A stretch of 64,000 nt of DNA from the NCBI GenBank assembly GCA_965219845.1, contig CBDCOP010000006.1, positions 294,670 through 358,669 of the forward strand. Reading direction: 5' to 3'. The stretch is from Dehalococcoidia bacterium. GTDB lineage: Bacteria; Chloroflexota; Dehalococcoidia; Lucifugimonadales; Australimonadaceae. Below are positions 38,197 through 53,959 of this stretch, piece by piece; positions within the stretch are counted from its first letter, which is position 1; each line of letters starts with the position of its first letter. The position numbers were made by a program, and so were the translations under genes. The notes beneath the pieces were generated by a model. That model was not told the origin of the DNA, made no database searches, and saw nothing but the letters and a program-made list of their open reading frames with translations.

Positions 38197-38338
38197 ACCG
38201 TTCGTGCTCCCTGAACGTGCTTTGCTGAATGGTCTATGTGTGCACACTAAGGAGAGCGGCGGCAACATAACAAGGGGCAGATGTCACAAGACTGGCGTGG
38301 GTAGTCCTCCCTACCTGGCCGGAGGTCGCGGAAGAGAG

Positions 38339-38425: not shown

Positions 38426-38506
38426 AGGTGCGCCACCTGCCAACCATCAGGGACTTGCGCCGCTCTCGCCGTCAACCCGCCTTAGCAACATCCGGGACAG
38501 CGACTT

Positions 38507-38815
38507 CTATCTCCACCATCTGAAACGTGGTCGATAGCGAGGGTTCGGGTTTACCAACTCGGCGTAGGAACGCAGAACGTCTTCCGGGAGCGGTTCGTTA
38601 TGGTGGGCAATGGCATCGTCGATGGACATCCTGGGTTCCGGGAGCGGCTCACCCTGCTCCAGCAGGTCCTCGATGTGGAACGCGAGAGCCTCGCGAATCA
38701 TCGCCTGCATCTCTTCCCAGGTCTTGCCGGTGCTGATGCAGCCCGGCACGTCCGGCACATAGGCGCCGTAATTGTTGGGGGTCTGCTGGAAAACGACGGC
38801 GTAGCGCAGCTTCAT
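38507..38815 (-). CDS. HicB-like antitoxin, orphan (no adjacent hicA)
   Basis: ATG at 38815 in ORF 38507..38860(-). MKLRYAVVFQQTPNNYGAYVPDVPGCISTGKTWEEMQAMIREAL...GEPLPEP. 102 aa. Confidence 0.7.
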   Translation of the reverse strand: MKLRYAVVFQQTPNNYGAYVPDVPGCISTGKTWEEMQAMIREALAFHIEDLLEQGEPLPEPRMSIDDAIAHHNEPLPEDVLRSYAELVNPNPRYRPRFRWWR

Positions 38816-38914
38816 TGCATGTAGTTGCTCCTTGACTCCCCACGCCTGTTCAGCCTTCACTGCATCTTGCGCGCTATAGGTCTCCCCGAGAGGATGTCGC
38901 GCGCTAAAGCACGG

Positions 38915-39107
38915 GCTTCGCTCAACATGACAACTCCCCTACTCCCCCACTCCCACAGGGCCCTCACCCTAACCCTCTCCCTCAGGAGAGGGGACCGAGC
39001 CCTCACCCCCTCGCCCCCGCAGTACCCTCACCCTCGCCCTCTCCCCTTGTAGAGACCTTTGCATAACCCCATCGCACACCCCAGACCCCGCCGATTCACC
39101 CCCATCC
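38915..39107. repeat. REP cluster (A', A, left half of a B unit)
   Basis: Ends ...GATTCACCCCCATCC, which is the left half of REP-B, cut by the IS110-family element. Confidence 0.9.
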
Positions 39108-39281
39108 TTGTATGGTGATGGAAGGCGGGGCAGGCCGCCCCATCCTGGGTCCCAAAAGACCGCAGGTTAGCTTGACCGCCCCGCCCCCATTCACCCGCCC
39201 TACCGGCTGCCCGAACAGTTGCCTGAGCCAACGAGCTCGTATCACAAGGCTGGGCACGGCAGGGCGCAAGGAGGATACCGC
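39108..39281 (+). ncRNA. Candidate bridge (guide) RNA of the IS110-family element
   Basis: CCCCATCCT (39138..39146) equals the left flank. GGTTAG (39165..39170) is the reverse complement of right flank CTAACC. A small hairpin GGTC-ccaaaa-GACC lies between them. ACAGTTGC (39215..39222) equals the element's right end (40230..40237). Confidence 0.45.
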
Positions 39282-40220
39282 ATGGACTCGACCCTCTGCA
39301 TCGGCATCGACGTCTCTCAGGACTGGCTCGACCTGACCGCTCACCCAGCCGGACAACCCCGGCGCTTCAAGACCACCCCTGACGGCCTCCGCTCTCTTGT
39401 CGAGCACTGCCGCGACGCTCAGCCCCGCTTGATCGCCTTCGAGGCCTCCGGCGGCTACGAACGCCCGCTCGCGGACACGCTCATCCAAGCGCAACTCCCC
39501 TTCGTCATCCTCAACCCCCGCAACGTTCGCTACCACGCCCGCTCCACCGGCATCCTGGCCAAGACGGACCGGATCGACGCTGCCGTCATCGCTCAGTTCG
39601 TCTACCGCAACGAGGTGCAGCCGAAGCCTGCGCCGTCGCCCGCGGAGCAGGCCGTGCGCGATCTGGCCACTCACCGCAACCAACTCGTCGATGCCCGGAC
39701 GCGCGCGATGCACGAGGGCCGGCACTTCACAGGGACGAGCTCGGCCAGCACCCAGCGCCATATCGCCTTCCTCGAACGGGAGATTGCTGCCATGGAGCAG
39801 GAGCTGCGGGAGGTCATCGCCCAGGACGTCTTCTTGCGCGAGCGCTCGGAGCGGCTGCGGAGCGTTCCCGGCGTCGGGGAGACGCTGGCGGCGGTGCTGC
39901 TCGGGGCCATGCCGGAACTGGGGCGCCTGAACCGGGGCGCCGTCGGCAAGCTGGCAGGTCTGGCCCCGCACGCCCGCGACAGCGGGAAGCGCGAGGGGAA
40001 GCGCTTCTGCTGGGGTGGGCGTGCGAACGTGCGGAGGGTGCTCTACATGCCTATGCTCGCGGCCATCCAGCACAACCCCGTGATCCGCGCCTTCTACCAG
40101 CGGCTGGTTGGCCAGGGCAAACCGAAGAAGGTGGCGCTGGTAGCCTGCATGCGCAAGATGCTGACGATACTGAACGCCATCCTACGGGAGGGGACCACCT
40201 GGAACCCACACATCGCTTGA
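39282..40220 (+). CDS. IS110-family transposase/recombinase (DEDD N-domain + C-terminal Ser domain)
   Basis: ATG at 39282 follows AAGGAGGA. The start CIGIDVSQDWLD and the blocks AFEASGGYE, KTDRIDA, VPGVGETLAAVLL and AGLAPHARDSGK are classic IS110 family features. 312 aa. Confidence 0.9.
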   Translation: MDSTLCIGIDVSQDWLDLTAHPAGQPRRFKTTPDGLRSLVEHCRDAQPRLIAFEASGGYERPLADTLIQAQLPFVILNPRNVRYHARSTGILAKTDRIDAAVIAQFVYRNEVQPKPAPSPAEQAVRDLATHRNQLVDARTRAMHEGRHFTGTSSASTQRHIAFLEREIAAMEQELREVIAQDVFLRERSERLRSVPGVGETLAAVLLGAMPELGRLNRGAVGKLAGLAPHARDSGKREGKRFCWGGRANVRRVLYMPMLAAIQHNPVIRAFYQRLVGQGKPKKVALVACMRKMLTILNAILREGTTWNPHIA

Positions 40221-40237
40221 CCCGCAATCACAGTTGC

Positions 40238-40329
40238 TAACCTTCCCCCATCGAGGGGGAAGGGATCAAATAACCCCGCACCGCATCTCCCTCACGGTTA
40301 TGTAAAGGTCCCCTTGTAGGGAGAGGGGA
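40238..40329. repeat. REP cluster (right half of the B unit, then an A unit)
   Basis: Starts TAACCTTCCCCCATCGAGGGGGAAGGGATCAAATA; ends CCCCTTGTAGGGAGAGGGGATCAA. Confidence 0.9.
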
Positions 40330-41193
40330 TCAATTCCCGAGATACGCCTCGCGGGCGGAGCGGTAGTCGGCGGTCCCGGTGGCGATGCCCATCATCTCCG
40401 GAGTCGGCTCGCGGCCGGCGAGGTCGGCGGAGGGCGCGCCGGACGCCTGGTGCGCGAGCGATTCGTAGACGGTGCGGACGGTCTGCGTGAACGTGCCGTG
40501 TCCGCGCAGCACGATCTTCACACCGTAGCGGGCGAGGATGTCGGTCGTGAGCGCCCCCGGCGTGCTGCCGAGCATGAAGGGCAGGCCCGTGAGGGCGCGC
40601 GCGGCCTGCAGGTGCGCCTCCTCCCGCACGCCCATGAGGAAGATGCCGTCCACGCCGGTCTCCGCATAGGCGGCGACGCGCACGAGCGCATCGTCGAGGC
40701 TGGTGGCGTTGATGGCGTGGGTGCGCCCCAGGATGACGGTCGCGTCGTCCTGCCGGGCGGCGACGGCGGCGCGCAGCTTGCCGGTCATCTCGTCGACCGG
40801 GATGAGCTCCTCCTTGCCGCCTGAGCCGTACCGGCTGGGAAGCGACGTGTCCTCGATGGTCATGCCGCTCGCGCCCGCATCCTCCAGTTCGCGGACGGTG
40901 CGCATGACGTTCAGCGCATTGCCGTAGCCGTTGTCGGCGTCGATCATCTGGCTGATGTCGGATGCGCGGGTGATGCGGCGCACCTGGTCGGCGAGCTCGG
41001 TGAGGGTCATCACGGCGACGTCCGGCGCTCCGAGGATGACGGCGCTCGCTATTGAGCCGCCGAGCATGCCGACTTCGAATCCGAGGGCGTAGGCGGTGCG
41101 CGACGAGACGGGGTCGAACACGGATGCGGGACGGATGCAGCCCTCGCGCTGGAGGTAGTCGCGCAGGCGTCGGCGGCGGTCGGTGACGTGCAT
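40330..41193 (-). CDS. Isocitrate lyase / PEP mutase superfamily enzyme (oxaloacetate decarboxylase / methylisocitrate lyase-like)
   Basis: 287-aa ORF. Family patterns DADNGYGNA and GMTIEDTSLP. Lacks the EDKxxxxxNS signature of true PEP mutases. Confidence 0.7.
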   Translation of the reverse strand: MHVTDRRRRLRDYLQREGCIRPASVFDPVSSRTAYALGFEVGMLGGSIASAVILGAPDVAVMTLTELADQVRRITRASDISQMIDADNGYGNALNVMRTVRELEDAGASGMTIEDTSLPSRYGSGGKEELIPVDEMTGKLRAAVAARQDDATVILGRTHAINATSLDDALVRVAAYAETGVDGIFLMGVREEAHLQAARALTGLPFMLGSTPGALTTDILARYGVKIVLRGHGTFTQTVRTVYESLAHQASGAPSADLAGREPTPEMMGIATGTADYRSAREAYLGN

Positions 41194-41269
41194 GGCGTGG
41201 CTCCTGTGACACCGGCCCGTAGCGGATTCGCGGGGCAGGCCGGTAGTTTGGGTCGGCAGCGATGATAGC

Positions 41270-41475
41270 CCATCGCAGGAACGACGGGAGGGACGCCGGG
41301 CCTCCCCAGCCCCCGGTTCACCCTCACCCTAACCCTCTCCACTCAAGGGAGAGGGGATCAGACGGGAATGACGAAAGGGACACCGGGCCGGTTCACCCCC
41401 ATCCTGGCCTTCCCCCATCGAGGGGGAAGGGACCAAGCAGGGGCGAGGTTCCTGCCTCCGCAGGAACGACGAGGT
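41270..41475. repeat. REP cluster (D-half, A', C-half, B, D)
   Basis: Contains CCCTCTCCACTCAAGGGAGAGGGGATC, TTCACCCCCATCCTGGCCTTCCCCCATCGAGGGGGAAGGGACCAAGC and AGGTTCCTGCCTCCGCAGGAACGACG. Confidence 0.9.
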
Positions 41476-41519
41476 TGCCCATCGGCCTACAGTGGTATCA
41501 TTGATAAGATGGAGGCAGA

Positions 41520-42512
41520 ATGACACAGGCGCACTATGCGATAGAAGCGACAAACATCTACAGGCGGTTCGGCGAGGTGCGCGCCGTCGAGGGCGTCAGC
41601 CTCGCGGTGAGTCCGGGCGAGATCTACGGCTTCCTCGGCCCCAACGGAGCGGGGAAGACCACCATGCTCCGAGTGCTGACGACGCTGCTCCTCCCGTCGG
41701 GCGGCAGCGCGACGGTTGCCGGGTTCGACGTGGTGTCGGAGGCGGTGCAGGTCCGGCTGAAGATCGGGACGGCGTTGCAAGATGTGGGGCTGGACCCGAA
41801 GCAGTCCGGCTTGGAGCTGCTGCGCCTGCAGGGCTCGCTGTACGGACTCTCCCGCAGGGAAACGAAACGCCGCATCGAGGAGCTCGAGCACCTCGTGGAC
41901 ATCGGCGACGCGATGAGCCGCCTCATCGGGACGTACTCCGGCGGCATGAAACGCCGCCTCGACCTCGCCGCGTCGCTGATCCACGCGCCGGAGGTGCTCT
42001 TCCTCGACGAGCCAACCACAGGCCTCGACCCCATCAGCCGCGCCCGCGTGTGGGACTACGTGCGGGCCATCAACCGGGAGATGGGCGTGACGATCTTTCT
42101 GACGACCCAGTACCTGGAGGAGGCTGACGCGCTCGCGGAGCGGGTCGGCATCATCAACCACGGCGTGGTGTCCGCGGAAGGCACGCCCGCCGAACTCAAA
42201 CGTTCGGTCGGCTCCGACGTGATCGTTGCCACTGTGGGCGAACCGGAGCAGGGCCGAGCCGCGCTGGAGCGGGTTGGTTCCGTACAGCAGGTGGACGTGT
42301 ACGAGAACGAGATATCCATCTCAACAGCGAACGGCGCGGCGTTGATAAGCGACGTTGCGCTCGCGCTCAATCATGCGGGGGTGACGGTGAACTCGCTTAC
42401 GCTGCGCACTCCAACCTTGGACGACGTGTTCCTGCAGGTCACCGGAGCGCGCATGGAAGCGGAGGCGGAGGGCTCCACCCACGACACCGAGCCGCAGGGG
42501 GTGGCATCGTGA
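41520..42512 (+). CDS. ABC-2 type exporter, ATP-binding protein (DrrA-like)
   Basis: ATG follows GGAGG. Walker A GPNGAGKTT, signature YSGGMKRRL, Walker B LFLDEPTTGLD. Confidence 0.9.
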   Translation: MTQAHYAIEATNIYRRFGEVRAVEGVSLAVSPGEIYGFLGPNGAGKTTMLRVLTTLLLPSGGSATVAGFDVVSEAVQVRLKIGTALQDVGLDPKQSGLELLRLQGSLYGLSRRETKRRIEELEHLVDIGDAMSRLIGTYSGGMKRRLDLAASLIHAPEVLFLDEPTTGLDPISRARVWDYVRAINREMGVTIFLTTQYLEEADALAERVGIINHGVVSAEGTPAELKRSVGSDVIVATVGEPEQGRAALERVGSVQQVDVYENEISISTANGAALISDVALALNHAGVTVNSLTLRTPTLDDVFLQVTGARMEAEAEGSTHDTEPQGVAS

Positions 42513-43327
42513 CCACCGCCACGCAGTCCATGACGCCGGTTACAGCGCGCCGGGCGGGCTTCCTGCGCGACGTGATGAGCCTAGGCGGGCGGGCGTTGCG
42601 CTCCATCCCGCGCGACGTCGAGACGCTCGTCCCCGCGCTCATCATCCCGGTCTTCTTCTTCATCATCAACGTCGGAGCGTTGCAGGACCTGACGGAGATA
42701 CCCGGTGGAGCGGCGGCGGCAGGGTTCGACTACAAGGCGTTCCAGATACCCGTCGCCATCCTGTTCGCCGTGACCGGACTGAGCCGGGCGAACATACTGG
42801 TGCTGGACATCCAGAACGGCTACTTCGACCGGCTCGCGTTGTCGCCGGTGAACCGCCTGGCGATGCTCCTGGGGTTCATGGTGGCGGACATGGCGCTCGC
42901 CGTCGCGATGTCGGTGCCGGTGTTCGTGCTCGCGTTCGCTATAGGGGTGGACTTCGTGACAGGGCTGCTCGGCATCGCTGCGCTGCTCGTGCTCACGGTC
43001 ATCTGGGCGATCGTCTACAACGGCTTCCCGTACGCGATCGCGCTGAAGACGGGCAATCCCGCGGCGGTGAACTCCAGCTTCATCATCTTCTTCCCCGTGG
43101 TATTCCTGAGCCCGGTGTTCGTTCCCCAGGAGGCGATGACCGGTTGGATGGAGACCATCGTCCAGTACAACCCGGTGACGTACCTGCTGCGCGGGATGCG
43201 CTCGCTCATCAGCGAGGGCTGGGCGCCGGAGGACATCTTTGTCGCGTTGCTCGGTATCGCGGCCATCGGGGTCGTCACGATTCCGCTTGCGACGCTGGCG
43301 CTGCTGGGGCGCGTCCGGAGGTCGTAG
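42509..43327 (+). CDS. ABC-2 type exporter permease
   Basis: GTG overlaps the upstream TGA (GTGA). 272-aa six-TM-type hydrophobic protein directly coupled to the ATPase gene. Confidence 0.8.
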   Translation: MTTATQSMTPVTARRAGFLRDVMSLGGRALRSIPRDVETLVPALIIPVFFFIINVGALQDLTEIPGGAAAAGFDYKAFQIPVAILFAVTGLSRANILVLDIQNGYFDRLALSPVNRLAMLLGFMVADMALAVAMSVPVFVLAFAIGVDFVTGLLGIAALLVLTVIWAIVYNGFPYAIALKTGNPAAVNSSFIIFFPVVFLSPVFVPQEAMTGWMETIVQYNPVTYLLRGMRSLISEGWAPEDIFVALLGIAAIGVVTIPLATLALLGRVRRS

Positions 43328-43374
43328 GGGCGTGGGGCGGAGGGGTTGCGAGACGCCCCCATACCCACGCCCCC

Positions 43375-43650
43375 ACGGTACGCTCACCCGTGCTCTCCCG
43401 CCATGTATGGACCCTTGCGTAACCCATCGCATACCCCACGTCCCGCCAACCCTCACCCCAGCCCTCTCCCGCCATCGGGAGAGGGAGCAGGCAGCCTCCC
43501 CACCACATCCGCCCTGGGCTGCGAGATTCCCGCTTCGCGGGAATGATGGAAGGGGGTGGGAATGGCGGAGGAAAGGGGCTGCGAGGTCCCTGCCTGCGCA
43601 GGAACGACGGGGGAACGTCCCGAGAGATGTTTCGGCTACGCTCAACATGA
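43375..43650. repeat. REP cluster (A variants, C, D)
   Basis: Contains CCCTCTCCCGCCATCGGGAGAGGGA, GAGATTCCCGCTTCGCGGGAATGATGG and GAGGTCCCTGCCTGCGCAGGAACGACG. Confidence 0.9.
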
Positions 43651-43682
43651 CAAGAGGTGGGGGCGTGTATGGTAGGGGCCTC

Positions 43683-44975
43683 ATGGAGAACGGCCCTGCG
43701 CCCATACAACATCTGCCCCGCCTGTGGCCGTCCCGCGCCTACTACGGCTGGGCCATCGTCTTCACCAGCTTCTTCATCTCCATCGCGCAGGTGCCGATGT
43801 ACGGCCCGGTCTTCTCCGTGTTCGTCAGGCCCATCGCTGACGACCTCGGCTGGACCCGCACCACCGTAACCGTCGCGTTCACCGTGGGGAGTCTGGGAGG
43901 CGCGCTGCTCGCCTCAGTTGTCGGCCCGGTGGTGGACCGGTACGGCGCGCGGGGCGTGATGGGAGCGACCGGCCTGCTGGTGACAGCAGGACTCCTGGGC
44001 ATCGCGGCGATGAGCGAGCCGTGGCAATTCTGGGTTGCGTACGGCGCGGCGCGGACCGTGTCCGTGGCGGGCGTGGGGCTCGGCACGTCGGTCGCCATCG
44101 CGAACTGGTTCATCCGCAAGCGCGGGCGCGCCATCGCGATGCGCGCCGCCGGACAGCGTGGAGGGCAGGCCATCATGCCGCTGCTCATCCTGCCGGTGCT
44201 GCTCACACTGGGGTGGCGCGAGTCGTTCGTCGTGCTGGGAGTGGTGGCCGCGCTGTTCATCACCGTCCCCTCGTTGCTGTTCATCCGGCGCAGGCCGGAG
44301 GACTTCGGACTCCGACCCGACGGCGACAGCGGTGAGTCCTCCGATGCGTCTCGCGCCCGTATGTCCGCCGAGTATTCGTGGACCCTCCGCCAGGTGCGGG
44401 CGACGCGGACGCTCTGGATGTTGACGGTGGGGATGGCTGCCGGGTTGGCGGCGCAGATCGCCATCAACGTGCACGCGGTGGCGAACTTCGAGGACAAGGG
44501 CATCTCGCAGGGGCTCGCGGTGACGGTTGCGAGCATCTTCACCGGCGTGGCGGCGGTCTCGATGGTGGGCTGGGGCGTGCTGGTGGAACGCATCCACGTG
44601 CGCTACGTGAGCATGGCGGCGATGGCGCTCTTCTTCCTGGCGATGGGAGTGCTGCTCGTTGCGGAGACGTACCCGATGGCAGTGCTCTTCGCGTTGCTGT
44701 TCGGCCTCGGAACAGGTGGGTGGACGGTGGCCCAGATGATCATGATCCCGAATTATTTTGGACGTCTCCACGCGGGATCGATCAAGGGGTTCATCTCGCC
44801 GGTCGAAGGATTGCTGGGCATCAGCGGCCCGCTGGTGGCCGCGCGAGTGTTCGACGCGACGGGCAGCTACGATGCAGCGTTCGTCGGCGCCGCGGTGACG
44901 TTCGCCGTGGGCATTGCCGCGTTCTACGTCGCGAAACCGCTGCGCGCGCCGTCGGCGGTGGGAGCGCCGGCCTGA
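43683..44975 (+). CDS. MFS transporter (oxalate/formate-antiporter-like), paralog 1
   Basis: ORF 43239..44975 is over-extended through REP DNA; ATG 43683 chosen (start uncertain). YYGWAIVFTSFFI...MYGPVFSVF is similar to the downstream paralog. Confidence 0.75.
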   Translation: MENGPAPIQHLPRLWPSRAYYGWAIVFTSFFISIAQVPMYGPVFSVFVRPIADDLGWTRTTVTVAFTVGSLGGALLASVVGPVVDRYGARGVMGATGLLVTAGLLGIAAMSEPWQFWVAYGAARTVSVAGVGLGTSVAIANWFIRKRGRAIAMRAAGQRGGQAIMPLLILPVLLTLGWRESFVVLGVVAALFITVPSLLFIRRRPEDFGLRPDGDSGESSDASRARMSAEYSWTLRQVRATRTLWMLTVGMAAGLAAQIAINVHAVANFEDKGISQGLAVTVASIFTGVAAVSMVGWGVLVERIHVRYVSMAAMALFFLAMGVLLVAETYPMAVLFALLFGLGTGGWTVAQMIMIPNYFGRLHAGSIKGFISPVEGLLGISGPLVAARVFDATGSYDAAFVGAAVTFAVGIAAFYVAKPLRAPSAVGAPA

Positions 44976-46345
44976 TGCGCGAGCAGCAGCACCAGCCGCT
45001 CCCCCGGCTCTGGCCGTTCAAAAAGGTCTTCTACGGCTGGGCGATCGTCGGCACGTCCGTCGTGGTGACGTTCGCGCAGGTGCCGATGTACGGGCCCGTG
45101 CTGTCCGTGTTCGTGACGCCCATCGAGCAGGAGCTGGGGTGGGCGCGCTGGGAGACCGCAATGGCGTTCACCATCGGCAGCCTGGGCGGGTCGATCGGAT
45201 CGGCGCTGGTCGGACACCTGCTGGACCGTTACGGCGCGCGGGCGGCGGTAGTGGTTTCGGGGATGCTGGTCACCGGGGCGCTGCTGGGCCTTGCGGTCAT
45301 GCAGGAAGTCTGGCAGTTCTGGGGGCTGTTCGGACTTGGCCGGACGGCGGCGCTCACCGGCGTGAACCTCGGCGTCACGGTTGCGCTGGGCAACTGGTTC
45401 ATCCGCAAGCGCGGCCGGGCGCTCTCGTTCATGACCGTGGGTCTGCGGGCGGGGCAGGCGCTCGTACCGCTGGTCATCGTGACACCGCTCATACTTGCCT
45501 ACTCGTGGCGGCACGCCTACGTTGCACTGGCGGTCCTGGCGTTCGTCTTCGTCGCTCTTCCAGGCTGGCTGTTCATCCGGCGGAGGCCGGAGGACTTCGG
45601 ACTGCTGCCGGATGGGGAGAGGGGACCAGGCGAGGTTCCTGCCTCCGCAGGAACGACGACCAGTGGTGCAGGAACGACGACCAATGGTGCAGGAACGACG
45701 ACCAGTGGGGCAGGAACGGCGGACGGAGAGGTGTCGTTCACGCTGGCAGAGGCGAAGCGCACACCGGCCTTCTGGCTGCTGACCATCGCGACGATGACGG
45801 TGATCTTCGCGCAGACCGCGGTGAACGTGCACGCGGTGCCGAGCGTGGAGGACAGGGGGGTGAGCCAGGCGTTCTCCGGCACGTTCGTCTTCATCATCAT
45901 GGGCACGGCGGCGCTCTCGGCCTACGGCTGGGGGGCGCTGATGGACAAGATCCACGTGCGGTGGGCGACCATCATCGCCACGCTCTTCTCGGCAGTAGCG
46001 ATGATCGTGCTCATCTTCGCCGACACCATCCTCATGGCGGCGGTGTTCGGCGTCCTGTTCGGGCTCGGCACGGGCGCCTGGACGATCTCGCAGATACTGC
46101 TGTTCGCCAACTACTTCGGCCGGCGGCACCTCGGCGCGATACGCGGGCTCTCGCAACTGCTGGCCGCGCCGCTCTCGTCGTTCGGCGCGGTGCTGGCGGG
46201 AGCGATCCAGACAGTGACGGGCGGCTACACGCTGGCGTTCCTCATCTTCTTCGTATCGCTGGTGATCGTGGTGGTGGCGCTTCTGCTGGCCAAGCCGCCG
46301 CGCAAGCCCGCGCCGGCCAGCCACACCGGTTCACCCCATTCCTAA
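44975..46345 (+). CDS. MFS transporter, paralog 2, carrying a REP-derived in-frame insertion
   Basis: ATG overlaps the upstream TGA (TGATG). Colinear with paralog 1 except for ~30 extra residues in the central loop. The last codons and the TAA stop lie inside a REP-B unit. Confidence 0.8.
   Translation: MREQQHQPLPRLWPFKKVFYGWAIVGTSVVVTFAQVPMYGPVLSVFVTPIEQELGWARWETAMAFTIGSLGGSIGSALVGHLLDRYGARAAVVVSGMLVTGALLGLAVMQEVWQFWGLFGLGRTAALTGVNLGVTVALGNWFIRKRGRALSFMTVGLRAGQALVPLVIVTPLILAYSWRHAYVALAVLAFVFVALPGWLFIRRRPEDFGLLPDGERGPGEVPASAGTTTSGAGTTTNGAGTTTSGAGTADGEVSFTLAEAKRTPAFWLLTIATMTVIFAQTAVNVHAVPSVEDRGVSQAFSGTFVFIIMGTAALSAYGWGALMDKIHVRWATIIATLFSAVAMIVLIFADTILMAAVFGVLFGLGTGAWTISQILLFANYFGRRHLGAIRGLSQLLAAPLSSFGAVLAGAIQTVTGGYTLAFLIFFVSLVIVVVALLLAKPPRKPAPASHTGSPHS
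45613..45720 (+). repeat. REP A'/D composite plus 21-bp tandem repeat inside a coding region
   Basis: GGGAGAGGGGACCAGGCGAGGTTCCTGCCTCCGCAGGAACGACG closely resembles the intergenic composite near 41428..41470. GCAGGAACGACGACCAGTGGT repeats at 45647, 45668 and 45689 (plus a partial unit), encoding AGTTTSG x3. Confidence 0.9.
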
Positions 46346-46437
46346 CCTTCCCCCATCGAGGGGGAAGGGATAGAACACCGCCCTGCATGCACCTTCCCCA
46401 AGGCTATGCAAGGGTCTCCATGCAGGGAGAGGGGAGC
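46331..46437. repeat. REP cluster (B, A variant)
   Basis: TTCACCCCATTCCTAACCTTCCCCCATCGAGGGGGAAGGGATAGAA and TCTCCATGCAGGGAGAGGGGAGCC lie between convergent genes. Confidence 0.9.
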
Positions 46438-47685
46438 CTACACGAAGCCTCGCAGCTTGATGGCTCGGGCGACGCGCTCGACGCCGATCTCCATCGCCGT
46501 CTCGCGGTACGCGCATCCCGCCTCCCGCGCCTTCGCCGCGACCGCGCGGTAAGCGGCAACGATGCGCCGCTGCAGTTCCTCGTTCACGCGCTCCTCCGTC
46601 CAGCTGAATTGTTGTAAGTTTTGCGTCCACTCGAAGTAGGAGACGGTGACGCCCCCGCCATTGACGAGGATGTCCGGCAGGACGGGGATGCCGCGTTCCG
46701 CGAGGATACGGTCTGCCTCGGGTGTCGTGGGGTGGTTGGCGGCTTCGAGTACGAGTTTCGCCGGCAGCGTCCCCGCGTTCTCCTCCGTGAGTGCGTTCTC
46801 CATCGCAGCGGGGACGAACACGTCGCACTCGACCGAGAAGATGTCCTCGGTGCGGCAGTTCTCGCCGCCCGTGAACCCAGCGACGGTGTGGTGTTCCCCG
46901 GCGTATTCGGCGAGCGCAGGAATGTCCAGCCCGTTCGCGTTGCAGATCGAGCCGTGCAGGTCGGCGACAGCGACGACGCGCAAGCCCTCCTCGTGCGCTA
47001 TTCTTGCGAACCACGAGCCGACGTTGCCGAAGCCCTGCACCGCGACCCGCGCGCCCTGCACCTGCATGTCGAGGTCGTGCATCGCCTCTGTCAGCACGAA
47101 CACCGCGCCGCGTCCGGTGGCCGCCTCGCGCCCCGCCGAGCCGCCCAGTTCGATGGGCTTGCCGGTCACGACGGACGGGTTGTAGCCGTGCAACTGGCCG
47201 TACTCGTCCATCATCCACGCCATCGTCTGCGCGTTGGTGCCCATGTCAGGCGCGGGAATATCGCGATGGGGGCCGAGGAGGTGCTGGATGCTGCGGGTGT
47301 AGCGCCGCGTAACGCGGTTCAGCTCAGCTTCGCTCAGCGTGTGGGGGTCGAGTTCGATGCCGCCCTTCGCGCCGCCGAACGGGATGTCGAGCAGGGCGGT
47401 CTTCCACGTCATCAGCGAGGCGAGGGCGCGCACCTCGTCTTCGTCGGCGTGGGGGTGGTAGCGGAGGCCGCCCTTGTACGGTCCGCGCACGGCGTTGTGC
47501 TGCACGCGGTAGCCAATGAAGACCTCGATCCGGCCGTCGTCCATCCGCACGGGGAGGGAGACGCGGAGCTCCCGCCACGGCTCGACGAGCATGTTGCACA
47601 AGCCCTGCGGCAACCCCAGGCGCTCCGCCGCGTAGTCGAACGAGCATCGGACGTCTTCCTGTGCGCTTCGCTCTTTGACGGCCAT
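46438..47685 (-). CDS. gdhA: NAD(P)-dependent glutamate dehydrogenase
   Basis: ATG at 47685 follows GAGGAG. The Glu/Leu/Phe/Val dehydrogenase signature LLDIPFGGAKGGI and a Rossmann motif VAVQGFGNVG. 415 aa. Confidence 0.9.
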   Translation of the reverse strand: MAVKERSAQEDVRCSFDYAAERLGLPQGLCNMLVEPWRELRVSLPVRMDDGRIEVFIGYRVQHNAVRGPYKGGLRYHPHADEDEVRALASLMTWKTALLDIPFGGAKGGIELDPHTLSEAELNRVTRRYTRSIQHLLGPHRDIPAPDMGTNAQTMAWMMDEYGQLHGYNPSVVTGKPIELGGSAGREAATGRGAVFVLTEAMHDLDMQVQGARVAVQGFGNVGSWFARIAHEEGLRVVAVADLHGSICNANGLDIPALAEYAGEHHTVAGFTGGENCRTEDIFSVECDVFVPAAMENALTEENAGTLPAKLVLEAANHPTTPEADRILAERGIPVLPDILVNGGGVTVSYFEWTQNLQQFSWTEERVNEELQRRIVAAYRAVAAKAREAGCAYRETAMEIGVERVARAIKLRGFV

Positions 47686-47739
47686 CGTGGTCTCCTCTCG
47701 ATCCGGGACCTCGTGCAACCTCACCGCTCCCCACTTCAC

Positions 47740-47792
47740 CCCGGAGTACCCTCACCCTAGCCCTCTCCCCTTGTAGGGAGAGGGGATCGGAG
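47740..47792. repeat. REP-A unit
   Basis: GGAGTACCCTCACCCTAGCCCTCTCCCCTTGTAGGGAGAGGGGATCGG. Confidence 0.9.
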
Positions 47793-47896
47793 TCCTCAAT
47801 TCGAGGATATCACCCTGCCTGCCGTGGCCCGTTCGAGACTGACGCGCTATCGGGAAGCGGAGGCTGCTATGCTCGCGGCATGGTGACCGGTAGCGC

Positions 47897-49123
47897 ATGA
47901 GCGTGTCAGGCCAGCGGCGGCGGGCCGCCTTGACCCACGCCCCCATCTTCTTCTCCTTCTTCACGTGGGGGTTCGGCACGGGCGCTCAGAACCTGGGACG
48001 CCCGTTGTTCGCACTGGCCGTTACGGGCAACGTCTTCCTGGTTGGGGTGCTGCTTGCGGCCAACGCCATACCACGCGCCTTCACCGGCCCGGTAACCGGC
48101 TTCCTCACGGACAAGCTGGGCCGCAAGCCGATGGTGCTGATGGGCCCCATCGTGCGCGGCGTAACCAACATCGGACAGTTCTTCGCGGACGACTACGCCA
48201 CATTCTTCGTGCTCGAAATGATCGGCCAGGTGGGCGTCGCCATGTGGGCAACGAGCTCCAACGTCCTCCTTTCCGACGTCACCAGCACTGAGAGCCGTGG
48301 TCGTGTGCTGGCGCTGCGCAACATGGCGACACGGCTGGGGTTCGTTGCCGGCCCCGCGGTGGGAGGGGTGCTGGCTCTGACGTTCGGGCTGGAGTCGGTC
48401 TTCCTGCTCAATGGGGTGAGCAAGATCGTTATCGTGGTTGTGGTGCTGACGATGGTGAAGGAGACGCGTCCGCAAGAGCTTGCCGAGGCGGGGAGCCCGG
48501 GACGGCAGGGGGCGCGGCTCTCGTTCGAACCGTTCCGCGACCGGACGTTCGCGGTCGTGGCGGTGGCGACCGCCGCGTTTGCAATGAGCAATGCGGGCAT
48601 CGCGCAGGCACTCCTGCCGGTGCATGCGGTGGACGCGTTGATGCTGGACGAAGCGGTTGTGGGGTTCCTCATCAGCCTCACCTCCGCACTCACCTTCTTG
48701 TGGGCATTTCCCAACGGCATGATCGCGGACCGTTTCGGGCGGAAGTGGTCGCTCGGGCCCGGGCTGCTGATAATGGCGGCGGCAGCAGTGGCGCTAACCG
48801 TGGGCGACGTGTATGCGGCGCTGCTGGTGGCGGCGGTGCTCATCGGCATCGGCGAGGCAGCGGGCATGGGGACCTCACAGACATTCGCGATGGACATGGC
48901 GCCACCGGAGAAGCGGGGGATGTACCTGGGCCTCTTCATGCTGGCGCAGTCGGTGGGTGCAACGATAGGGCCGTTGCTGTTGACCGCTCTTTACCATTTC
49001 GTTTTCCCGGACCTGTCGTTCGCTACGATGGCGGTGCTGTTGGTGCTGGCCGCCCTCATGCTGGCGTTGATGGCACGGGAGACCGGCGGACGCGCCCGGC
49101 TCCGCCAGGCTGACGCTCCGTAG
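47897..49123 (+). CDS. MFS transporter
   Basis: 408-aa ORF with 12 predicted hydrophobic segments. MFS motif GFLTDKLGRKP between TM2 and TM3. Confidence 0.85.
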   Translation: MSVSGQRRRAALTHAPIFFSFFTWGFGTGAQNLGRPLFALAVTGNVFLVGVLLAANAIPRAFTGPVTGFLTDKLGRKPMVLMGPIVRGVTNIGQFFADDYATFFVLEMIGQVGVAMWATSSNVLLSDVTSTESRGRVLALRNMATRLGFVAGPAVGGVLALTFGLESVFLLNGVSKIVIVVVVLTMVKETRPQELAEAGSPGRQGARLSFEPFRDRTFAVVAVATAAFAMSNAGIAQALLPVHAVDALMLDEAVVGFLISLTSALTFLWAFPNGMIADRFGRKWSLGPGLLIMAAAAVALTVGDVYAALLVAAVLIGIGEAAGMGTSQTFAMDMAPPEKRGMYLGLFMLAQSVGATIGPLLLTALYHFVFPDLSFATMAVLLVLAALMLALMARETGGRARLRQADAP

Positions 49124-50355
49124 TGCCTCCATCGGGCCTGACGTGCGACCCAGGCGGATTGACCCCCGCAGCGCGGACGGCGCATCATCGCAACATCGAA
49201 GCGTACGTTGCATCCGCTCCCGCCCCAGCCTCCGCTCCGCCGCACTCGTTCGTCAACGAGCAGCGGGCGCTCGACGACGCTGTCGCAGCGCTCGCGTCCG
49301 GTTCCGTAGTGGCCATCGACACGGAGGCTGACAGCCGCCACCACTACCCGGAGAAGGTCTGCCTGCTCCAGCTCTCCGATGGCGCACACAGCTACCTCGT
49401 CGATACGCTCGCAGGCCTGGACTACGGCGCGCTGGGCGCTCTCTTCCTCGATGCCTCGGTGCAGAAGGTGCTGCACGGCGGCGACTTCGACCTGCGCGGG
49501 TTGAATCGCGACTTCGGCTTCACGTTCGCCAACTGCTACGACACGTCCATAGCGGCGCGGTTCGCGGGCATCGAACGCTTCGGCCTCGCGTCGCTGCTCG
49601 AGGAGTTGCTGGACGTCCGCATCCCGAAGGACCAGCGTCTGCGGCGGGCGGACTGGTCGCGGCGTCCGCTGGAGAAGGACGCGCTCGCCTACGCGGCGTC
49701 GGACGTGGCGTACCTGCCTACGCTTCGCGACGTGCTGGACGAGCGATCGCGCGCGCTGGGCAGGGAGTCGTGGGTTACGGAGGAGTGCGAGCGCCTCACA
49801 GAGATCAGGCACGTTCCGCCTGACCCGGACATGGCGTGGCTGTCGGTGAAGGGTGCCCACGTGCTCGACGGGAGGGGTCTGGCGGTGCTCAAACCGCTGT
49901 TCGAATTTCGGGAGGTCGAGGCACGGCGGCTCGACCGTCCTCCGGGGTACGTGCTTCCCGCGCAGGCGCTCGTGCATATCGCAGCGCATCCTGGCGCGGC
50001 GGTGGAGGACGTGCCAGGGATGAACGCGACCCTCGTGCGGCGCTACGGGCGGGGCGTCCGCGCTGCCGTGAAGACCGGCGTGGCGTCGCCTCCGCTGCAG
50101 CGCCCGCGCCCACCGCAGCCGCTCTTTCCTCGCATGACCAAGGCCGAGCTGTCACGACTCGGTCGGCTCAAGCGGTGGCGCGCAGGCCTCGGGGCCGACT
50201 TGGGGGTCGACCCCTCCATCCTCTGGCCGATGCGGAGCCTGGAACGGCTGGCCCGCGCGCCGGGGTCGCTCGACGCCGAGTGCGCGTCGGCGGAGGTGCG
50301 GGTGTGGCAGCGGGAGCGGTTCGCCGAGCCGCTGCGGCGGGAACTGGGGCAGTAG
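49123..50355 (+). CDS. rnd: Ribonuclease D (DEDD 3'-5' exonuclease + HRDC domain)
   Basis: GTG start overlaps the upstream TAG (TAGTG); start uncertain. Exo motifs VAIDTEAD, LHGGDFD and YAASDVAYL, with an HRDC-like C-terminal half. Confidence 0.8.
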   Translation: MPPSGLTCDPGGLTPAARTAHHRNIEAYVASAPAPASAPPHSFVNEQRALDDAVAALASGSVVAIDTEADSRHHYPEKVCLLQLSDGAHSYLVDTLAGLDYGALGALFLDASVQKVLHGGDFDLRGLNRDFGFTFANCYDTSIAARFAGIERFGLASLLEELLDVRIPKDQRLRRADWSRRPLEKDALAYAASDVAYLPTLRDVLDERSRALGRESWVTEECERLTEIRHVPPDPDMAWLSVKGAHVLDGRGLAVLKPLFEFREVEARRLDRPPGYVLPAQALVHIAAHPGAAVEDVPGMNATLVRRYGRGVRAAVKTGVASPPLQRPRPPQPLFPRMTKAELSRLGRLKRWRAGLGADLGVDPSILWPMRSLERLARAPGSLDAECASAEVRVWQRERFAEPLRRELGQ

Positions 50356-50395
50356 AGAGCCTTGCAGAACCATCAGCACACCCCAATCTCCACCC

Positions 50396-50448
50396 CTCGG
50401 AGTACCCTCACCCTAGCCCTCTCCCCTTGTAGGGAGAGGGGATCAACA
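50396..50448. repeat. REP-A unit
   Basis: GGAGTACCCTCACCCTAGCCCTCTCCCCTTGTAGGGAGAGGGGATCAA. Confidence 0.9.
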
Positions 50449-50527
50449 CCCCGTTCCACCCTTCGCCTAGGCTAGGCAGAGGTCTCAGTAGCGGAGAACG
50501 AATCGTGCAGGGAAGCGAGAGGACAAC

Positions 50528-51508
50528 GTGATGCGACCGCCGACGCTACGGGACGTTTACGAAGCGCGAAAGACCATTGCACCCTATCTGGCCCGTACGC
50601 CGTTGCAGTACTCGGCGGGGCTGAGCCGGTTGTTCGATGCCGAGGTGTACCTGAAGCATGAGGAGCACCATCCACTGGGCGCCTTCAAGGCGCGCGGCGG
50701 CATCAACCTGCTGGCGCACATGACCGAAGAGGAACGGAGCCGGGGACTGATCACCGCATCGACCGGCAACCACGGGCAGTCGATCGCCAACGCTTGCCGC
50801 ATATTCGAAGCAAGGGCGCTCATCGCGTTGCCGCAGAGGGACCCCAACCCGCTGAAGGTGGCAGCCATGGAAGCGTTGGGCGCAGAGCTGGTCTTCCACG
50901 GGGAAAACTTCGACGAGGCGAAGGCCTACTCCGAACGGCTGGCCGCGGAAGAGGGCTACCGCTATGTGCATCCCGCGAACGAACCACTGCTCATAGCGGG
51001 CGTGGCAACGCAGGCGTTGGAGATCATCGAAGACCTGCCTGACGTGGAGGTGCTGTACCTCCCGTTGGGAGGCGGCAGCGGCGTAGCCGGCGCCTGCGTG
51101 GTCGCCAGTGCGGTCGCTCCGGACATCAGGGTCCGGGCCGTGCAGTCGGAAGGAGCGCCGGCCGGTTACCTGTCCTGGCAGCGAGGCGAAATGGCGTTTG
51201 CTCCGATGAACACGTTTGCGGAGGGCATAGCCACGATGTCCGGCAACGAACTTCCCCAGCAGATCATCCGTCATACGTTGGACGACTTCGTGCTCGTCAG
51301 CGACGACGAGATACGCCAGGCCGTCGGTCTGCTGATCGAGAAGGCGCACACGATGGCAGAAGGCGCGGGGGCGGCGGCCACGGCGGGAGCGTACAAGCAA
51401 CGGGCATCGTTGACCGGCAGGAAGGTGTCCATCACCGTGAGCGGCGGAAACACCACCACAGCCCAGCTCATCGACGCGCTGGAAACGTACGCTAGGATGC
51501 GGGAGTAG
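50528..51508 (+). CDS. PLP-dependent threonine/serine dehydratase (catabolic type, no ACT domain)
   Basis: GTG-ATG start after GAGAGGA. PLP-Lys context HHPLGAFKARGG and glycine loop LGGGSGVAG. 326 aa. Confidence 0.85.
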   Translation: MMRPPTLRDVYEARKTIAPYLARTPLQYSAGLSRLFDAEVYLKHEEHHPLGAFKARGGINLLAHMTEEERSRGLITASTGNHGQSIANACRIFEARALIALPQRDPNPLKVAAMEALGAELVFHGENFDEAKAYSERLAAEEGYRYVHPANEPLLIAGVATQALEIIEDLPDVEVLYLPLGGGSGVAGACVVASAVAPDIRVRAVQSEGAPAGYLSWQRGEMAFAPMNTFAEGIATMSGNELPQQIIRHTLDDFVLVSDDEIRQAVGLLIEKAHTMAEGAGAAATAGAYKQRASLTGRKVSITVSGGNTTTAQLIDALETYARMRE

Positions 51509-51537
51509 GCTCCCGCACACCCAACCCCACCCACAAA

Positions 51538-51648
51538 GGCCCTCACCCTAACCCTCTCCCTCAGGAGAGGGGACCAGCCCGCGTACACCCACCCCGCCCC
51601 CGGAGTACCCTCACCCTAGCCCTCTCCCCTTGTAGGGAGAGGGGATCG
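51538..51648. repeat. REP cluster (A', A)
   Basis: GGCCCTCACCCTAACCCTCTCCCTCAGGAGAGGGGACCAGCC and GGAGTACCCTCACCCTAGCCCTCTCCCCTTGTAGGGAGAGGGGATCGG. Confidence 0.9.
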
Positions 51649-51709
51649 GCCGGTGCTGCGGGGCGGGCGTGCTATCCTTGCCGTATCCCTGTTCCCTGCC
51701 GGAGTTGCG

Positions 51710-53959
51710 ATGGTTGCTCAACCCACCGGGCGCGCTATCGGTGTGCCCACCCCCCGAGTCGACGGCGTCGAGAAAGCAACGGGCCGCGCCGTCTACACCG
51801 CCGACGTACAGTTGGATGGGGCGCTCTTTGCCAAGACGCTGCGTTGTCCCTTTCCCCATGCCCGCATCCTCTCCATAGACACGTCCGCGGCAGAGCGGGC
51901 GCCCGGCGTGCACGCCGTTGTCACCGGCGCGGACATCTACGAGGGCGCTCGGCACGGACGCGCGGTGCTGGACGTTCCCGTGCTTGCGCAGGGCGTCGCC
52001 CGGTTCATCGGCGAGCAGGTCGCGGCCGTGGCCGCGGACGACGAGGACATCGCACAGCGCGCACTCGACCTCATCGAAGTGGAATACGAAGAGTTGCCCG
52101 CCGTGCTGACGATGGACGAAGCGAAGGCGGAGGGCGCGCCGCTCGTGCACGAGGACATGCTGCAGGTGAAGGGCTACCCGAAGGAGGTAACCGAGCCGAG
52201 CAACGTCTACACCGTCTGGGAGTGGGCGAAGGGCGACGTCGAGGCGGGGATGGCGGAGGCCGACGTGATCGTGGAGAACACGTTCACGACGCCGCGCCAG
52301 CACCAGGCGTACCTGGAGCCGCACACCTGCCTCGTGGCGGCGCACCCGTCAGGCAAGGTGGACGTGTGGGCTGCGAACAAGTCGCCCCACCCGGGCAAGC
52401 GGATGGTGGCCATGGCGCTAGGGCTGGACGCCGGGGACGTGGTATTCAACCCCGTCACCATAGGCGGCGACTTCGGGGGCAAGGGCTCCGCGATGGCGAT
52501 ACCCATCGCGTGGATGCTTTCCACGCGCTCCGACAGGCCAGTGAAGATCGTGTTCGACTACTCGGAAGACCTCACGTCCGCTAACCCACGCCACGAGTCC
52601 CGTGTCACAGTGCGCACCGGCGCGACGCGCGAAGGCATCATCCTGGCGCATGAGGCGCTGGTGGAATACAACAGCGGCGCGTACGCCGGCTTCAAGCCCG
52701 GCGGGCACCTCGGCGGCGCCAGCGCCGCGGCGGGACCGTACCGGGCGGCGAACACACGCATCGTGGAGCACCAGGTCTACACGAACAACGTGCCGTGCGG
52801 GTACATGCGCGGCCCGGGAGAGCCGCAGGCGATGTTCGCGGTGGAGTCGCAGATCGACTGCCTCGCGGCGGCGCTGGGGATGGACCCCGCGGAGTTGCGC
52901 CGCCGGAACCTCGTTATCGAGGGCGAGCAGGACTCGCTTGGCACCGTGTTCGAGCAGGTGCGTTCCATCGAAACGCTGGATGCCGCACTGGACGCGGCGG
53001 GCTATGCCAAGCCGAGGCCCTCGGACGAACGTCTCGCTTATGGCAGGGGCGTCGCCATCGGCGAGCGCGTGCAGGCAGGCGGCGAGACGCACGCGGGTGT
53101 GACGTTGCACCCGGACGGATCGGTAACGGTCAACACCTCCGTCTTCGAACAGGGCACCGGCTCCTACACCGTGATGCAGCAGATCGTCGCGGACGAACTG
53201 CGCCTGCCGATCGAGCAGGTGCGCGTCGCCGTGTGGGACACTGCGAGCACGTCGTTCGACTCCGGCATCGGCGGCGCGCGGGTGACGCGGATGGCGAGCG
53301 CGGCGGTGTGGAACGCGGCGCAGGCCGCCAAGGGCGAACTGTTCAAGCTGGCGGCGGACATCCTCGGCTGGCCGGAGGACACGTTGGAGGTGGACGGACC
53401 GGCGCTGCGGCGGACCGACTCCAGCGAGACCATCGAGTGGGCGTCGCTGGCGGAGCGCACCGGCGCCCCCATCGTGGGCCTGGGCGACGTGCAGGACACG
53501 GCCAGGAACCCCTACACCGCGTTCACGGCGCAGGTCGCCGAGGTGGCGGTCGACCGGGAGACGGGACAGGTGAGACTGCTGACGATGACCACGGCTCACG
53601 ACACCGGCAAGATACTCAATCCCATCGGCCACCAGGGGCAGGTCAACGGCGGGCTCGTGCAGGGCATCGGTTTCGGCCTGCAGGAGGAGTTGGCGGTCGA
53701 GGACGGACGCGTCACCACGGCATCGTTCGCCGACTACAAGATCCCAACGGTTGCCGACCTTCCGGAGCTGCGCACGGTGCTGCTGGACGAGGACCAGGGC
53801 GGCGGTTGGGGCCCGTACCAGGTCAAGGGCATCGGCGAGCAGTCCAACTCGCAGGCCGCCCCCGCCATAGCGAACGCCGTCGCCGACGCCGTTGGGGTGC
53901 GCATACGCGACCTTCCCGTAACGGCGGAGAAGGTGTACCAGGCACTGCACGCTCGATGA
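51710..53959 (+). CDS. Molybdopterin-binding subunit of a xanthine dehydrogenase / aldehyde oxidase / CoxL-family oxidoreductase
   Basis: ATG at 51710 in ORF 51653..53959. N-terminal a/b-hammerhead pattern PRVDGVEKATGRAVYTADV...HARILSIDTS..A...PGVHAVVTGADI. 749 aa. Confidence 0.85.
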   Translation: MVAQPTGRAIGVPTPRVDGVEKATGRAVYTADVQLDGALFAKTLRCPFPHARILSIDTSAAERAPGVHAVVTGADIYEGARHGRAVLDVPVLAQGVARFIGEQVAAVAADDEDIAQRALDLIEVEYEELPAVLTMDEAKAEGAPLVHEDMLQVKGYPKEVTEPSNVYTVWEWAKGDVEAGMAEADVIVENTFTTPRQHQAYLEPHTCLVAAHPSGKVDVWAANKSPHPGKRMVAMALGLDAGDVVFNPVTIGGDFGGKGSAMAIPIAWMLSTRSDRPVKIVFDYSEDLTSANPRHESRVTVRTGATREGIILAHEALVEYNSGAYAGFKPGGHLGGASAAAGPYRAANTRIVEHQVYTNNVPCGYMRGPGEPQAMFAVESQIDCLAAALGMDPAELRRRNLVIEGEQDSLGTVFEQVRSIETLDAALDAAGYAKPRPSDERLAYGRGVAIGERVQAGGETHAGVTLHPDGSVTVNTSVFEQGTGSYTVMQQIVADELRLPIEQVRVAVWDTASTSFDSGIGGARVTRMASAAVWNAAQAAKGELFKLAADILGWPEDTLEVDGPALRRTDSSETIEWASLAERTGAPIVGLGDVQDTARNPYTAFTAQVAEVAVDRETGQVRLLTMTTAHDTGKILNPIGHQGQVNGGLVQGIGFGLQEELAVEDGRVTTASFADYKIPTVADLPELRTVLLDEDQGGGWGPYQVKGIGEQSNSQAAPAIANAVADAVGVRIRDLPVTAEKVYQALHAR

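Follow-up and report, generated by a model that had tools for sequence, protein, structure and literature searches.

How does the DNA of intergenic hairpin repeats become part of a conserved transporter gene? This question is raised by a 64,000-nt stretch of contig CBDCOP010000006.1 (the window), in which the second of two tandem genes of the major facilitator superfamily (MFS), paralogue 2 (44975..46345), carries two segments related to the repetitive extragenic palindromic (REP) units of the same genome. One segment lies in the central loop between transmembrane helices 6 and 7 (TM6-TM7 loop), and the other contains the stop codon. The host is a SAR202/Dehalococcoidia (Chloroflexota) bacterium of the sponge type. 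The original prediction had described these segments as REP elements co-opted into a coding sequence by insertion, expansion and fixation. We consider it very probable that REP DNA replaced a part of the loop in frame, that slippage made an array from it, that a further REP unit supplied the stop codon, and that the tolerated DNA was spread by recombination. Coordinates are on the forward (+) strand unless the minus strand is named.

REP-derived DNA in the central loop of paralogue 2

The intergenic DNA of the host is dense with co-oriented hairpin repeats, for which the names REP-A, REP-B and REP-D were kept from the original prediction. REP-A has the form CCCTCACCCTNNCCCTCTCC..GGAGAGGG, and REP-B consists of a 5' flank, TTCACCCCCATCCTAA, followed by CCTTCCCCCATCGAGGGGGAAGG. 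REP-D is the CGTC-tagged family (GGTTCCTGC-CTCC-GCAGGAAC-GACG) and has a sister form, GGATTCCCGC-NNNN-GCGGGAAT-GACG. The 25-nt core of REP-D occurs four times in the window with at most three mismatches, whereas none is expected (100 shuffles). Similarly, the REP-B hairpin has five copies in the window, all on the + strand, against zero expected by chance. Altogether, eight REP-D copies are distributed across 34 kb of the window, and the GACG tag directly follows the right arm in all of them (8/8).

Paralogue 2 contains a 31-nt sequence, GGCGAGGTTCCTGCCTCCGCAGGAACGACGA (45629..45659), that is identical at 31 of 31 positions to intergenic DNA at 41442..41472. The hairpin within it (45635..45658) is an exact copy of the intergenic 41447..41471. 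It is composed of the left arm GTTCCTGC (45635..45642), the loop CTCC (45643..45646), the right arm GCAGGAAC (45647..45654) and the tag GACG (45655..45658), which is CGTC on the other strand. When the DNA of 45616..45660 was folded, an 8-bp stem with the 4-nt loop CTCC was obtained at -10.3 kcal/mol. Upstream of the hairpin there is a remnant of a REP-A'-type right arm without its left arm (GAGAGGGGACCAGG, 45617..45630), which matches 51529..51580 and 38950..39001; the remnant GGAGAGGGGACCAGG corresponds to the REP-A' right arm as at 51559. The joint GGGACCAGGCG(A/G)GG is also found in REP-B/D composites of paralogue 1 loops. The loop DNA had been equated with an A'/D composite near 41428. The 31-nt REP-D identity supports this, but the A' label does not hold there, as the intergenic reference (41388..41472) is a REP-B and REP-D composite.

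Downstream of the left arm and loop, an in-frame tandem array, GCAGGAACGACGACCAGTGGT (45647..45718), was detected by Tandem Repeats Finder with a period of 21, 3.4 copies and 94% matches. Each 21-nt unit opens with the right arm of the hairpin plus the GACG tag (GCAGGAACGACG), and the array codes for GAGTTT[S/N] repeats with the frame kept. This is the array of three and a half copies of a right-arm-derived 21-bp unit that had been predicted. Thus, the 104 nt of REP material comprise an A'-type right arm, a complete REP-D and the array. When the 47 aa coded by REP DNA were searched against a database, nothing matched at E <= 0.01.

The loop was then compared among orthologues, with its length measured from RRRPED to SFTL. 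In REP-free orthologues of paralogue 2 the loop is always exactly 117 nt and has zero similarity to REP clusters. All longer loops match the intergenic REP clusters of the window with E values of 1e-7 to 1e-20. According to the original prediction, the same loop in orthologues from genomes without REP families would have meant that it is ancestral; more distant genomes, with few or no REP units in their 7-kb loci, instead have the plain loop, so the prediction withstands this check. Comparison with the REP-free alleles L001 and L011-L016 delimits the REP-derived segment to 45617..45720 (104 nt, residues ~E215-A249). The empty site in L001 reads CCGGACGGG-[53 nt]-GGACGGAGAGGTG, and the window allele reads CCGGATGGG-[104 nt REP-derived]-GGACGGAGAGGTG, with the precise boundaries CCGGAYGG / REP / GGACGGAGAGGTG. 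This alignment indicates that 104 nt of REP-derived DNA took the place of 53 nt of the ancestral loop. The net gain is 17 aa, and the event was not a simple insertion as had been claimed. The loop is indeed longer, as predicted, but by 22 residues relative to paralogue 1 and 17 relative to REP-free orthologues, not by about 30.

The number of units in the array varies among alleles, which answers the earlier call for a check of repeat-number polymorphism. There are 1.5 units in L002, 2.4 in L006 and L007, 3.4 in the window and 4.4 in P0002 (P numbers denote database proteins), and arrays of 6, 7, 12 and 15.6 units also occur. The junctions are the same among alleles with 1.5 to 15.6 units, and the lengths differ in steps of 7 aa. 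The proteins P0006, P0008 and P0009 have 7, 6 and 15 units, respectively, with 0 differences at their other 410 residues. Since several of the variable alleles are on megabase contigs, the variation is not merely an artefact of short reads, even if single counts taken from short-read assemblies are uncertain. Frameshifts are present in two alleles. That of P0114 falls within the 21-nt array, and the protein stops after 288 aa; that of P0038 precedes the REP-B stop, and the frame continues across the hairpin as ..LPNLPPSRGKG. Each is a null or variant allele, or else an error of assembly.

Arm plus tag is reiterated outside genes as well, where the periods are 18, 19, 19 and 20 nt; inside the MFS loops only periods of 21 and 72 nt were found (small sample). 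This contrast agrees with a filter on the reading frame, which would predict it. The intergenic reiterations are located at 32709..32786 (period 20), 56424..56476 (18) and 43533..43570 (~19), with further sites in L003 and L006.

The 3' end, protein context and recombination

The last five codons of paralogue 2 and its TAA lie within the conserved REP-B 5' flank TTCACCCCCATCCTAA, as had been predicted. In the gene, this flank (TTCACCCCATTCCTAA, 46330..46345) codes for ..SPHS followed by TAA (46343..46345), and the REP-B hairpin CCTTCCCCCATCGAGGGGGAAGGGA comes directly after the stop codon (46346..46370). The same flank is joined to REP-B hairpins at 31996, 41392 and 62480. A second hairpin module, ..GGTCTCCATGCAGGGAGAGGGGAG (46381..46437; repeat families D10 and D14), fills the gap to the stop of the glutamate dehydrogenase gene gdh (46438..47685, minus strand; Pfam ELFV_dehydrog E=1e-76). 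gdh is convergent on the MFS pair with synteny kept, and its stop (CTA, 46438..46440) adjoins the REP composite.

The second module is absent in L001. The 3' end there reads ...gccggacgaTGA-C-CTA(gdh), so that the MFS gene ends with ..PAPAGR-TGA, one base from the gdh stop. In L020, the MFS and gdh stops overlap in CTAG. In the window, gcgccggcc and CCTACACG are separated by a REP composite of ~120 nt. The old gene has lost its final 9 nt, and the C-terminus ..SHTGSPHS-TAA derives from the REP-B flank. The consensus REP-B flank GGTTCACCCCCATCCTAA reads GSPPS-stop, and many orthologues, distant ones included (L018, L019 and L035), end exactly in this way. Because no intrinsic-terminator-like or sigma-70-like site was found in 43300..46700, a role of the composite as a terminator between the convergent genes was set aside.

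A REP unit may have supplied the stop codon of another gene of the window too. In the GNAT acetyltransferase gene (61912..62451), the TAA is part of the module GCGTAAC, which is found repeatedly in REP composites (31963, 39061, 43417 and 62446).

Paralogue 2 encodes 456 aa and matches Pfam MFS_1 with E=8e-37 and 127 bits (gathering cutoff 33.4). The database protein P0001 is 100% identical to it. One homologue is named 'OFA family oxalate/formate antiporter-like' in JGI. The close relatives of the protein come from metagenome-assembled genomes (MAGs) labelled Dehalococcoidia, SAR202 or Chloroflexota, several of them from sponge studies, and the gene order is kept. The ratio of nonsynonymous to synonymous substitution rates (dN/dS), with the loop excluded, was 0.11-0.27 against eleven orthologues and 0.04-0.05 between close pairs. 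These rates point to purifying selection on paralogue 2.

An AlphaFold2 model (42 sequences; mean predicted local distance difference test score, pLDDT, of 84) has 12 TM helices with the central loop at residues 201-263. The profile match and this predicted 6+6 TM fold with a long central loop place paralogue 2 in MFS_1. Only residues 1-3, 218-250 and 449-456 have a pLDDT below 50, and the second and third of these stretches are the REP-coded segments. The peptides across the REP junctions are GPGEVPASAGTT, GAGTTTS and HTGSPHS. Lys/Arg residues are clustered at the N-terminus, in loops 2-3 and 4-5, in the central loop and at the C-terminus, and a DRYGAR motif follows TM2. The established MFS topology and the positive-inside rule agree with these clusters and with the position of DRYGAR. 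Therefore, the central loop and the C-terminus were assigned to the cytoplasm, and the cytoplasmic location that had been proposed for the loop is borne out by these features. Both REP-coded stretches are thus predicted to be in cytoplasmic, disordered parts of the protein, where an unstructured insertion would be least harmful.

In a tree calculated with the loop masked, REP-bearing paralogue 2 alleles are scattered among REP-free alleles and are not monophyletic; the REP-bearing L002 and the REP-free L014 differ at 1% of residues. The window gene itself is a mosaic, which resembles the REP-free L001 on the 5' side of the loop and the REP-bearing L006/L007 on the 3' side. This pattern marks it as a recombinant with a breakpoint near the loop. 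Homologous recombination near the loop would therefore explain much of the patchiness, with REP-bearing and REP-free loop alleles exchanged between lineages. As judged from these alignments, both states coexist across lineages, so 'fixation' does not describe this locus.

REP units elsewhere and the origin of the two segments

Paralogue 1 (43683..44975, 430 aa; Pfam MFS_1 E=3.7e-39) is preceded by ABC ATPase and ABC-2 permease genes. As predicted, it is in tandem and colinear with paralogue 2, with a TGATG stop/start overlap and 44% identity. Its central loop (44286..44387, 102 nt) is REP-free in the window genome, with zero REP similarity. The original prediction had used the paralogues as a before/after pair for REP entry. 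Such a pair does exist in the REP-free and REP-bearing orthologous alleles, but paralogue 1 was rejected as the 'before' state: it is only 44% identical, and the orthologous alleles give the real empty site.

The paralogue 1 loop carries REP composites in L002, L003, L005, L006, L007, L009, L010 and L012-L015, including the closest relative found (L006). The contents are REP-A, REP-B+D or longer, up to five tandem 72-nt composites in L010. At least five configurations share a GCTCCGG junction. A nearly pure insertion is seen between L013 and L029 (53 nt in, 8 nt out). L004 has reverse-orientation composites in both loops and also in the DNA that separates the paralogues. Both loops of L005 have a non-REP spacer sequence in common, which suggests that one paralogue was converted by the other.

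A scan of metagenome contigs with the exact pattern gave 99 further REP-D copies in 78 unrelated stretches. These copies were passed through a crude screen of open reading frames (ORFs) and codon positions, which flagged five: one in an MFS loop (L080), two in L090 and two in a terminase linker (L058 and L095). The coding-like call in L090 was rejected as a spurious ORF through a REP array. About 4 of the 99 copies have coding-like ORF flanks on both sides, and ~96% are apparently extragenic. Intragenic REP-D is thus rare (~4%), and the cases found are in inter-domain linkers, namely those of the two MFS paralogues and the terminase. In the terminase large subunit (PHROG 2, E=1.7e-39), a reverse REP-D, read as VVPAEAGTS, is in the linker after the N-terminal domain. 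It accounts for 9 aa in L058 (4786; MKWU01000046.1) and forms part of a ~70-aa composite in L095 (2437..3059; LXNJ01010121.1).

Just upstream of paralogue 1 there is a REP cluster (43428..43611) with REP-A, a CGTC-type unit with reiterated arm, and REP-D. The region 43239..43682 has no stop in the frame of the gene, and the mechanical ORF reaches 578 aa. Public gene calls for paralogue 1 orthologues (L002, L003, L005 and L006) are 467-543 aa long instead of ~430. These long calls are N-terminal over-extensions through REPs. This matters for annotation: REP clusters in high-GC genomes have few stop codons, so gene callers over-extend the neighbouring ORFs.

All 28 REP-A/B/D units of the window (28/28) are on the + strand and lie in 30600..62600, with none in 1..30000. 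Among 42 metagenome loci with at least three units, 187 of 207 REP units are on the majority strand of their locus, and in L004 the intragenic and extragenic units are reversed all together. This bias may reflect the polarity of replication or transcription. In the intergenic region 30684..30978, 66-nt REP-A modules are repeated in tandem (x4.5, 99% identity), with the right arm of the hairpin swapped for AGAGACCTTTTGCATAAC. An Rfam scan gave no family at gathering score, only sub-threshold matches. One of these, between the REP-A hairpin at 38960..38994 (minus strand) and whalefall-1 RNA (24 bits, E=0.037; gathering score 37), is probably a resemblance between hairpins only. The REP-free region contains a 929-bp direct repeat (975..1903 and 8604..9532, 99% identical). 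Each copy has an ORF of 313 aa whose match to the rve integrase core is below the Pfam gathering cutoff (1022..1963, minus strand), and the two are probably copies of an insertion sequence. The GC content is 59-62% over roughly the first 20 kb and 65-68% beyond, and the low-GC, REP-free region could be an acquired island.

How did the segments of paralogue 2 arise? Several lineages would go back to an ancestor in which 53 nt from the central part of the TM6-TM7 loop gave way to the 3' portion of an A'/D composite. The replacement would have been in frame, with REP-D read as GEVPASAGTT. Because arm plus tag was then present twice, 21 nt apart, slipped-strand mispairing could have gained and lost 21-nt (7-aa) units. 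At the 3' end, a REP-B/A composite appears to have taken the near-zero spacer between the MFS gene and gdh and to have removed the native TGA together with the two codons before it, and the REP-B 5' flank would have closed the reading frame thereafter. For the entry itself, the candidate routes are a strand-specific transposition-like event of single-stranded DNA, template switching, or gene conversion, the last two with a REP cluster nearby as the source. The ancestral sequence at the 3' junction has GACG, a possible CGTC target. An IS200/IS605-style rule of insertion 3' of a CGTC target was dropped, as the junction is ambiguous by 2-3 nt and the paralogue 1 junctions deviate. Joining by microhomology (GGG at the 5' side, GACGGAG at the 3' side) was also considered; the observed junction is 4 nt longer than a simple join predicts.

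Since both REP-coded stretches are placed in disordered, cytoplasmic parts of a protein under purifying selection, they are best read as tolerated selfish or repair-derived DNA and not as an adaptation. Some observations weigh against this explanation. Among seven REP-bearing alleles (the window, L002, L003, L005, L006, L007 and L010), the REP core (45629..45658) is variable at 1 of 10 third-codon positions, in comparison with 43 of 100 in the flanks (100 codons; Fisher p ~0.05). Such low variation is not what pure neutrality predicts; a recent spread, conversion from REPs of the genome, or selection that acts on the hairpin would fit it, and it is the sole hint of constraint at the nucleotide level. 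In addition, some of the copy numbers were read from short-read assemblies, in which arrays can be misjudged, and the junctions show only short G-rich microhomology with the mentioned ambiguity of 2-3 nt at the CGTC target. The nearly invariant core would be expected under adaptive co-option, in which the linker or the hairpin is kept for a function, such as a contingency-type variable-number tandem repeat (VNTR) that tunes linker length, an mRNA pause or stability element between the two halves of six helices each, or a protein-binding DNA site. The same loop also has REPs again and again, almost all intragenic copies retain an intact hairpin, the stem in L009 has a left-arm change that is compensated by one in the right arm, and every forward insertion in both paralogues uses the same frame, GEVPA[S/F]AGTT. 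Still, we regard co-option as doubtful. Sister lineages retain REP-free alleles, on which purifying selection acts in the same way, the copy number runs from 1.5 to 15.6 without pattern, and the segment is predicted to be disordered. Moreover, a recent spread by recombination, or conversion from the many copies in the genome, can account for the conservation of the core, and the third-codon statistic is borderline. The data show tolerance in disordered segments and no evidence of function, and the term 'co-opted' was not retained. A bolder version, in which the TM6-TM7 linker is a targeted landing site for strand-polar REPs, the hairpin is kept by selection or continual conversion, and arm-plus-tag slippage is a general generator of linkers, is a long shot. 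If true, REP slippage would tune low-complexity inter-domain linkers in symbionts, with MFS and terminase as the first examples.

The scattered distribution of REP-bearing alleles, including the 1% difference between L002 and L014, would also be expected if the same composite had inserted independently at a targeted site in several lineages. The loop has clearly been struck more than once, as the paralogue 2 loop of L004 has a different composite in reverse orientation, that of L009 has a different 5' junction, and the paralogue 1 loop has its several configurations. However, in most REP-bearing paralogue 2 alleles the two junctions are the same and the 21-nt unit contains one and the same 9-nt spacer of non-REP sequence, and the window gene is a recombinant near the loop. 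We therefore think repeated insertion unlikely as the main cause. An assembly artefact, in which a chimera induced by repeats made the in-gene REP or the array length, is very improbable. Short-read assemblers can collapse or expand 21-nt arrays, and P0114 and P0038 have frameshifts. In contrast, the same structure is present in independent assemblies, megabase contigs (3.0 Mb for L006, 1.3 Mb for P0005 and 3.5 Mb for P0038) among them, and in NCBI MAGs from different studies, and the frame is kept in all but one allele. Finally, the loop might be ancestral and merely resemble REPs, or the REP family might have been seeded from paralogue 2. Only the resemblance itself speaks for this. A 31/31-nt identity with 0 expected by chance, the largely extragenic REP-D copies in unrelated metagenome stretches, and the lack of REP similarity in the loops of distant and all 117-nt-loop orthologues already refute it. 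Thus, replacement in frame, slippage and recombinational spread of tolerated REP DNA is the explanation that we adopt.

Comparison with known systems

Di Nocera, De Gregorio & Rocco (2013; PMC3733652) reported REPs wholly inside ORFs in several species, with intragenic clusters encoding 20-82 aa, some of them at the COOH end. In their survey, the ends of GTAG REPs frequently give the stop codon of the flanking ORF, the Rickettsia elements RPE-4 and RPE-6 are classed as CGTC REPs, no dedicated transposase is reported for CGTC REPs, and Chloroflexi are listed with GTAG repeats only. In-frame insertion of Rickettsia palindromic elements (RPEs) has been reviewed (PMC10969869), and other in-frame repeat fusions are known (PMC3184786). 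In a limited literature collection, no paper on REPs in sponge SAR202 genomes was found. The event described here is a well-resolved case of a phenomenon already known in other bacteria and involves no new kind of element or mechanism.

What the locus adds is an unusually complete series of selfish hairpins turning into protein sequence. An empty site, a single unit, arrays of 2-15 units, a duplicated composite, a reverse composite, frameshifted alleles and a REP stop are all found in one conserved gene pair across related genomes. The series shows that the frame filters the repeat period, that entry can replace host codons, and that recombination spreads the result among lineages.

Among the known families, REP-D is most readily compared with CGTC-1. 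Read on the other strand, it consists of CGTC, an 8-bp stem and a 4-nt loop (CGTC-GTTCCTGC), with the unpaired terminal CGTC next to the stem in 8/8 window copies, and it is dispersed and mostly intergenic. CGTC-1 has A-T as first and second stem pairs and a CCA-like tail, whereas the in-gene REP-D has G-C and T-A (GTTCCTGC) and a CTC tail. The sister form (CGTC-ATTCCCGC..GCGGGAAT-CCAG; 31107, 56336 and 56408) fits both A-T pairs and the tail. CGTC-1 units mostly form head-to-head dimers according to Di Nocera et al.; here the composites are co-oriented, head to tail, with unrelated REP-A/B hairpins. The present case also differs from their REPs in that the host belongs to a SAR202 lineage of Chloroflexota, a half REP (arm plus tag) became an in-frame VNTR, and host codons were replaced. 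The stop is a TAA from the 5' flank of an untagged hairpin, in contrast to stops from GTAG termini, and REP-D carries CGTC, unlike the GTAG-tagged REPs and REPINs mobilised by REP-associated tyrosine transposases (RAYTs).

A close parallel is given by the RPEs, which, as far as the work of Ogata et al. (2000, 2002) is recounted in PMC10969869 and PMC3733652, are palindromes inserted in frame in functional genes and tolerated there. Likewise, in paralogue 2 the frame is kept, dN/dS is 0.1-0.2 and REP-free alleles are at hand. In those accounts, RPE-1 type elements are ~100-150 bp long, have a conserved peptide of their own and occur in dozens of unrelated genes. In the present case the core is a 24-nt hairpin plus tag and its composites measure 72-75 nt; intragenic copies were found in the two MFS paralogues and the terminase only (~4% of sampled REP-D), and the paralogue 2 event replaced host sequence. 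The Neisseria dRS3/NIME elements, CGTC-1 according to Di Nocera et al., were compared by layout: the sister form CGTC-ATTCCCGC-N4-GCGGGAAT-CCA shares the ATTCCC..GGGAAT core and the mosaic intergenic clusters. In Neisseria, dRS3 is a target of phage integrase, and nothing of that kind was seen here. The array resembles VNTR and contingency loci in that its 21-nt unit is a multiple of three and its count differs among otherwise identical alleles. Its source is a REP arm, however, and what holds it is the cytoplasmic linker of a transporter rather than a surface protein.

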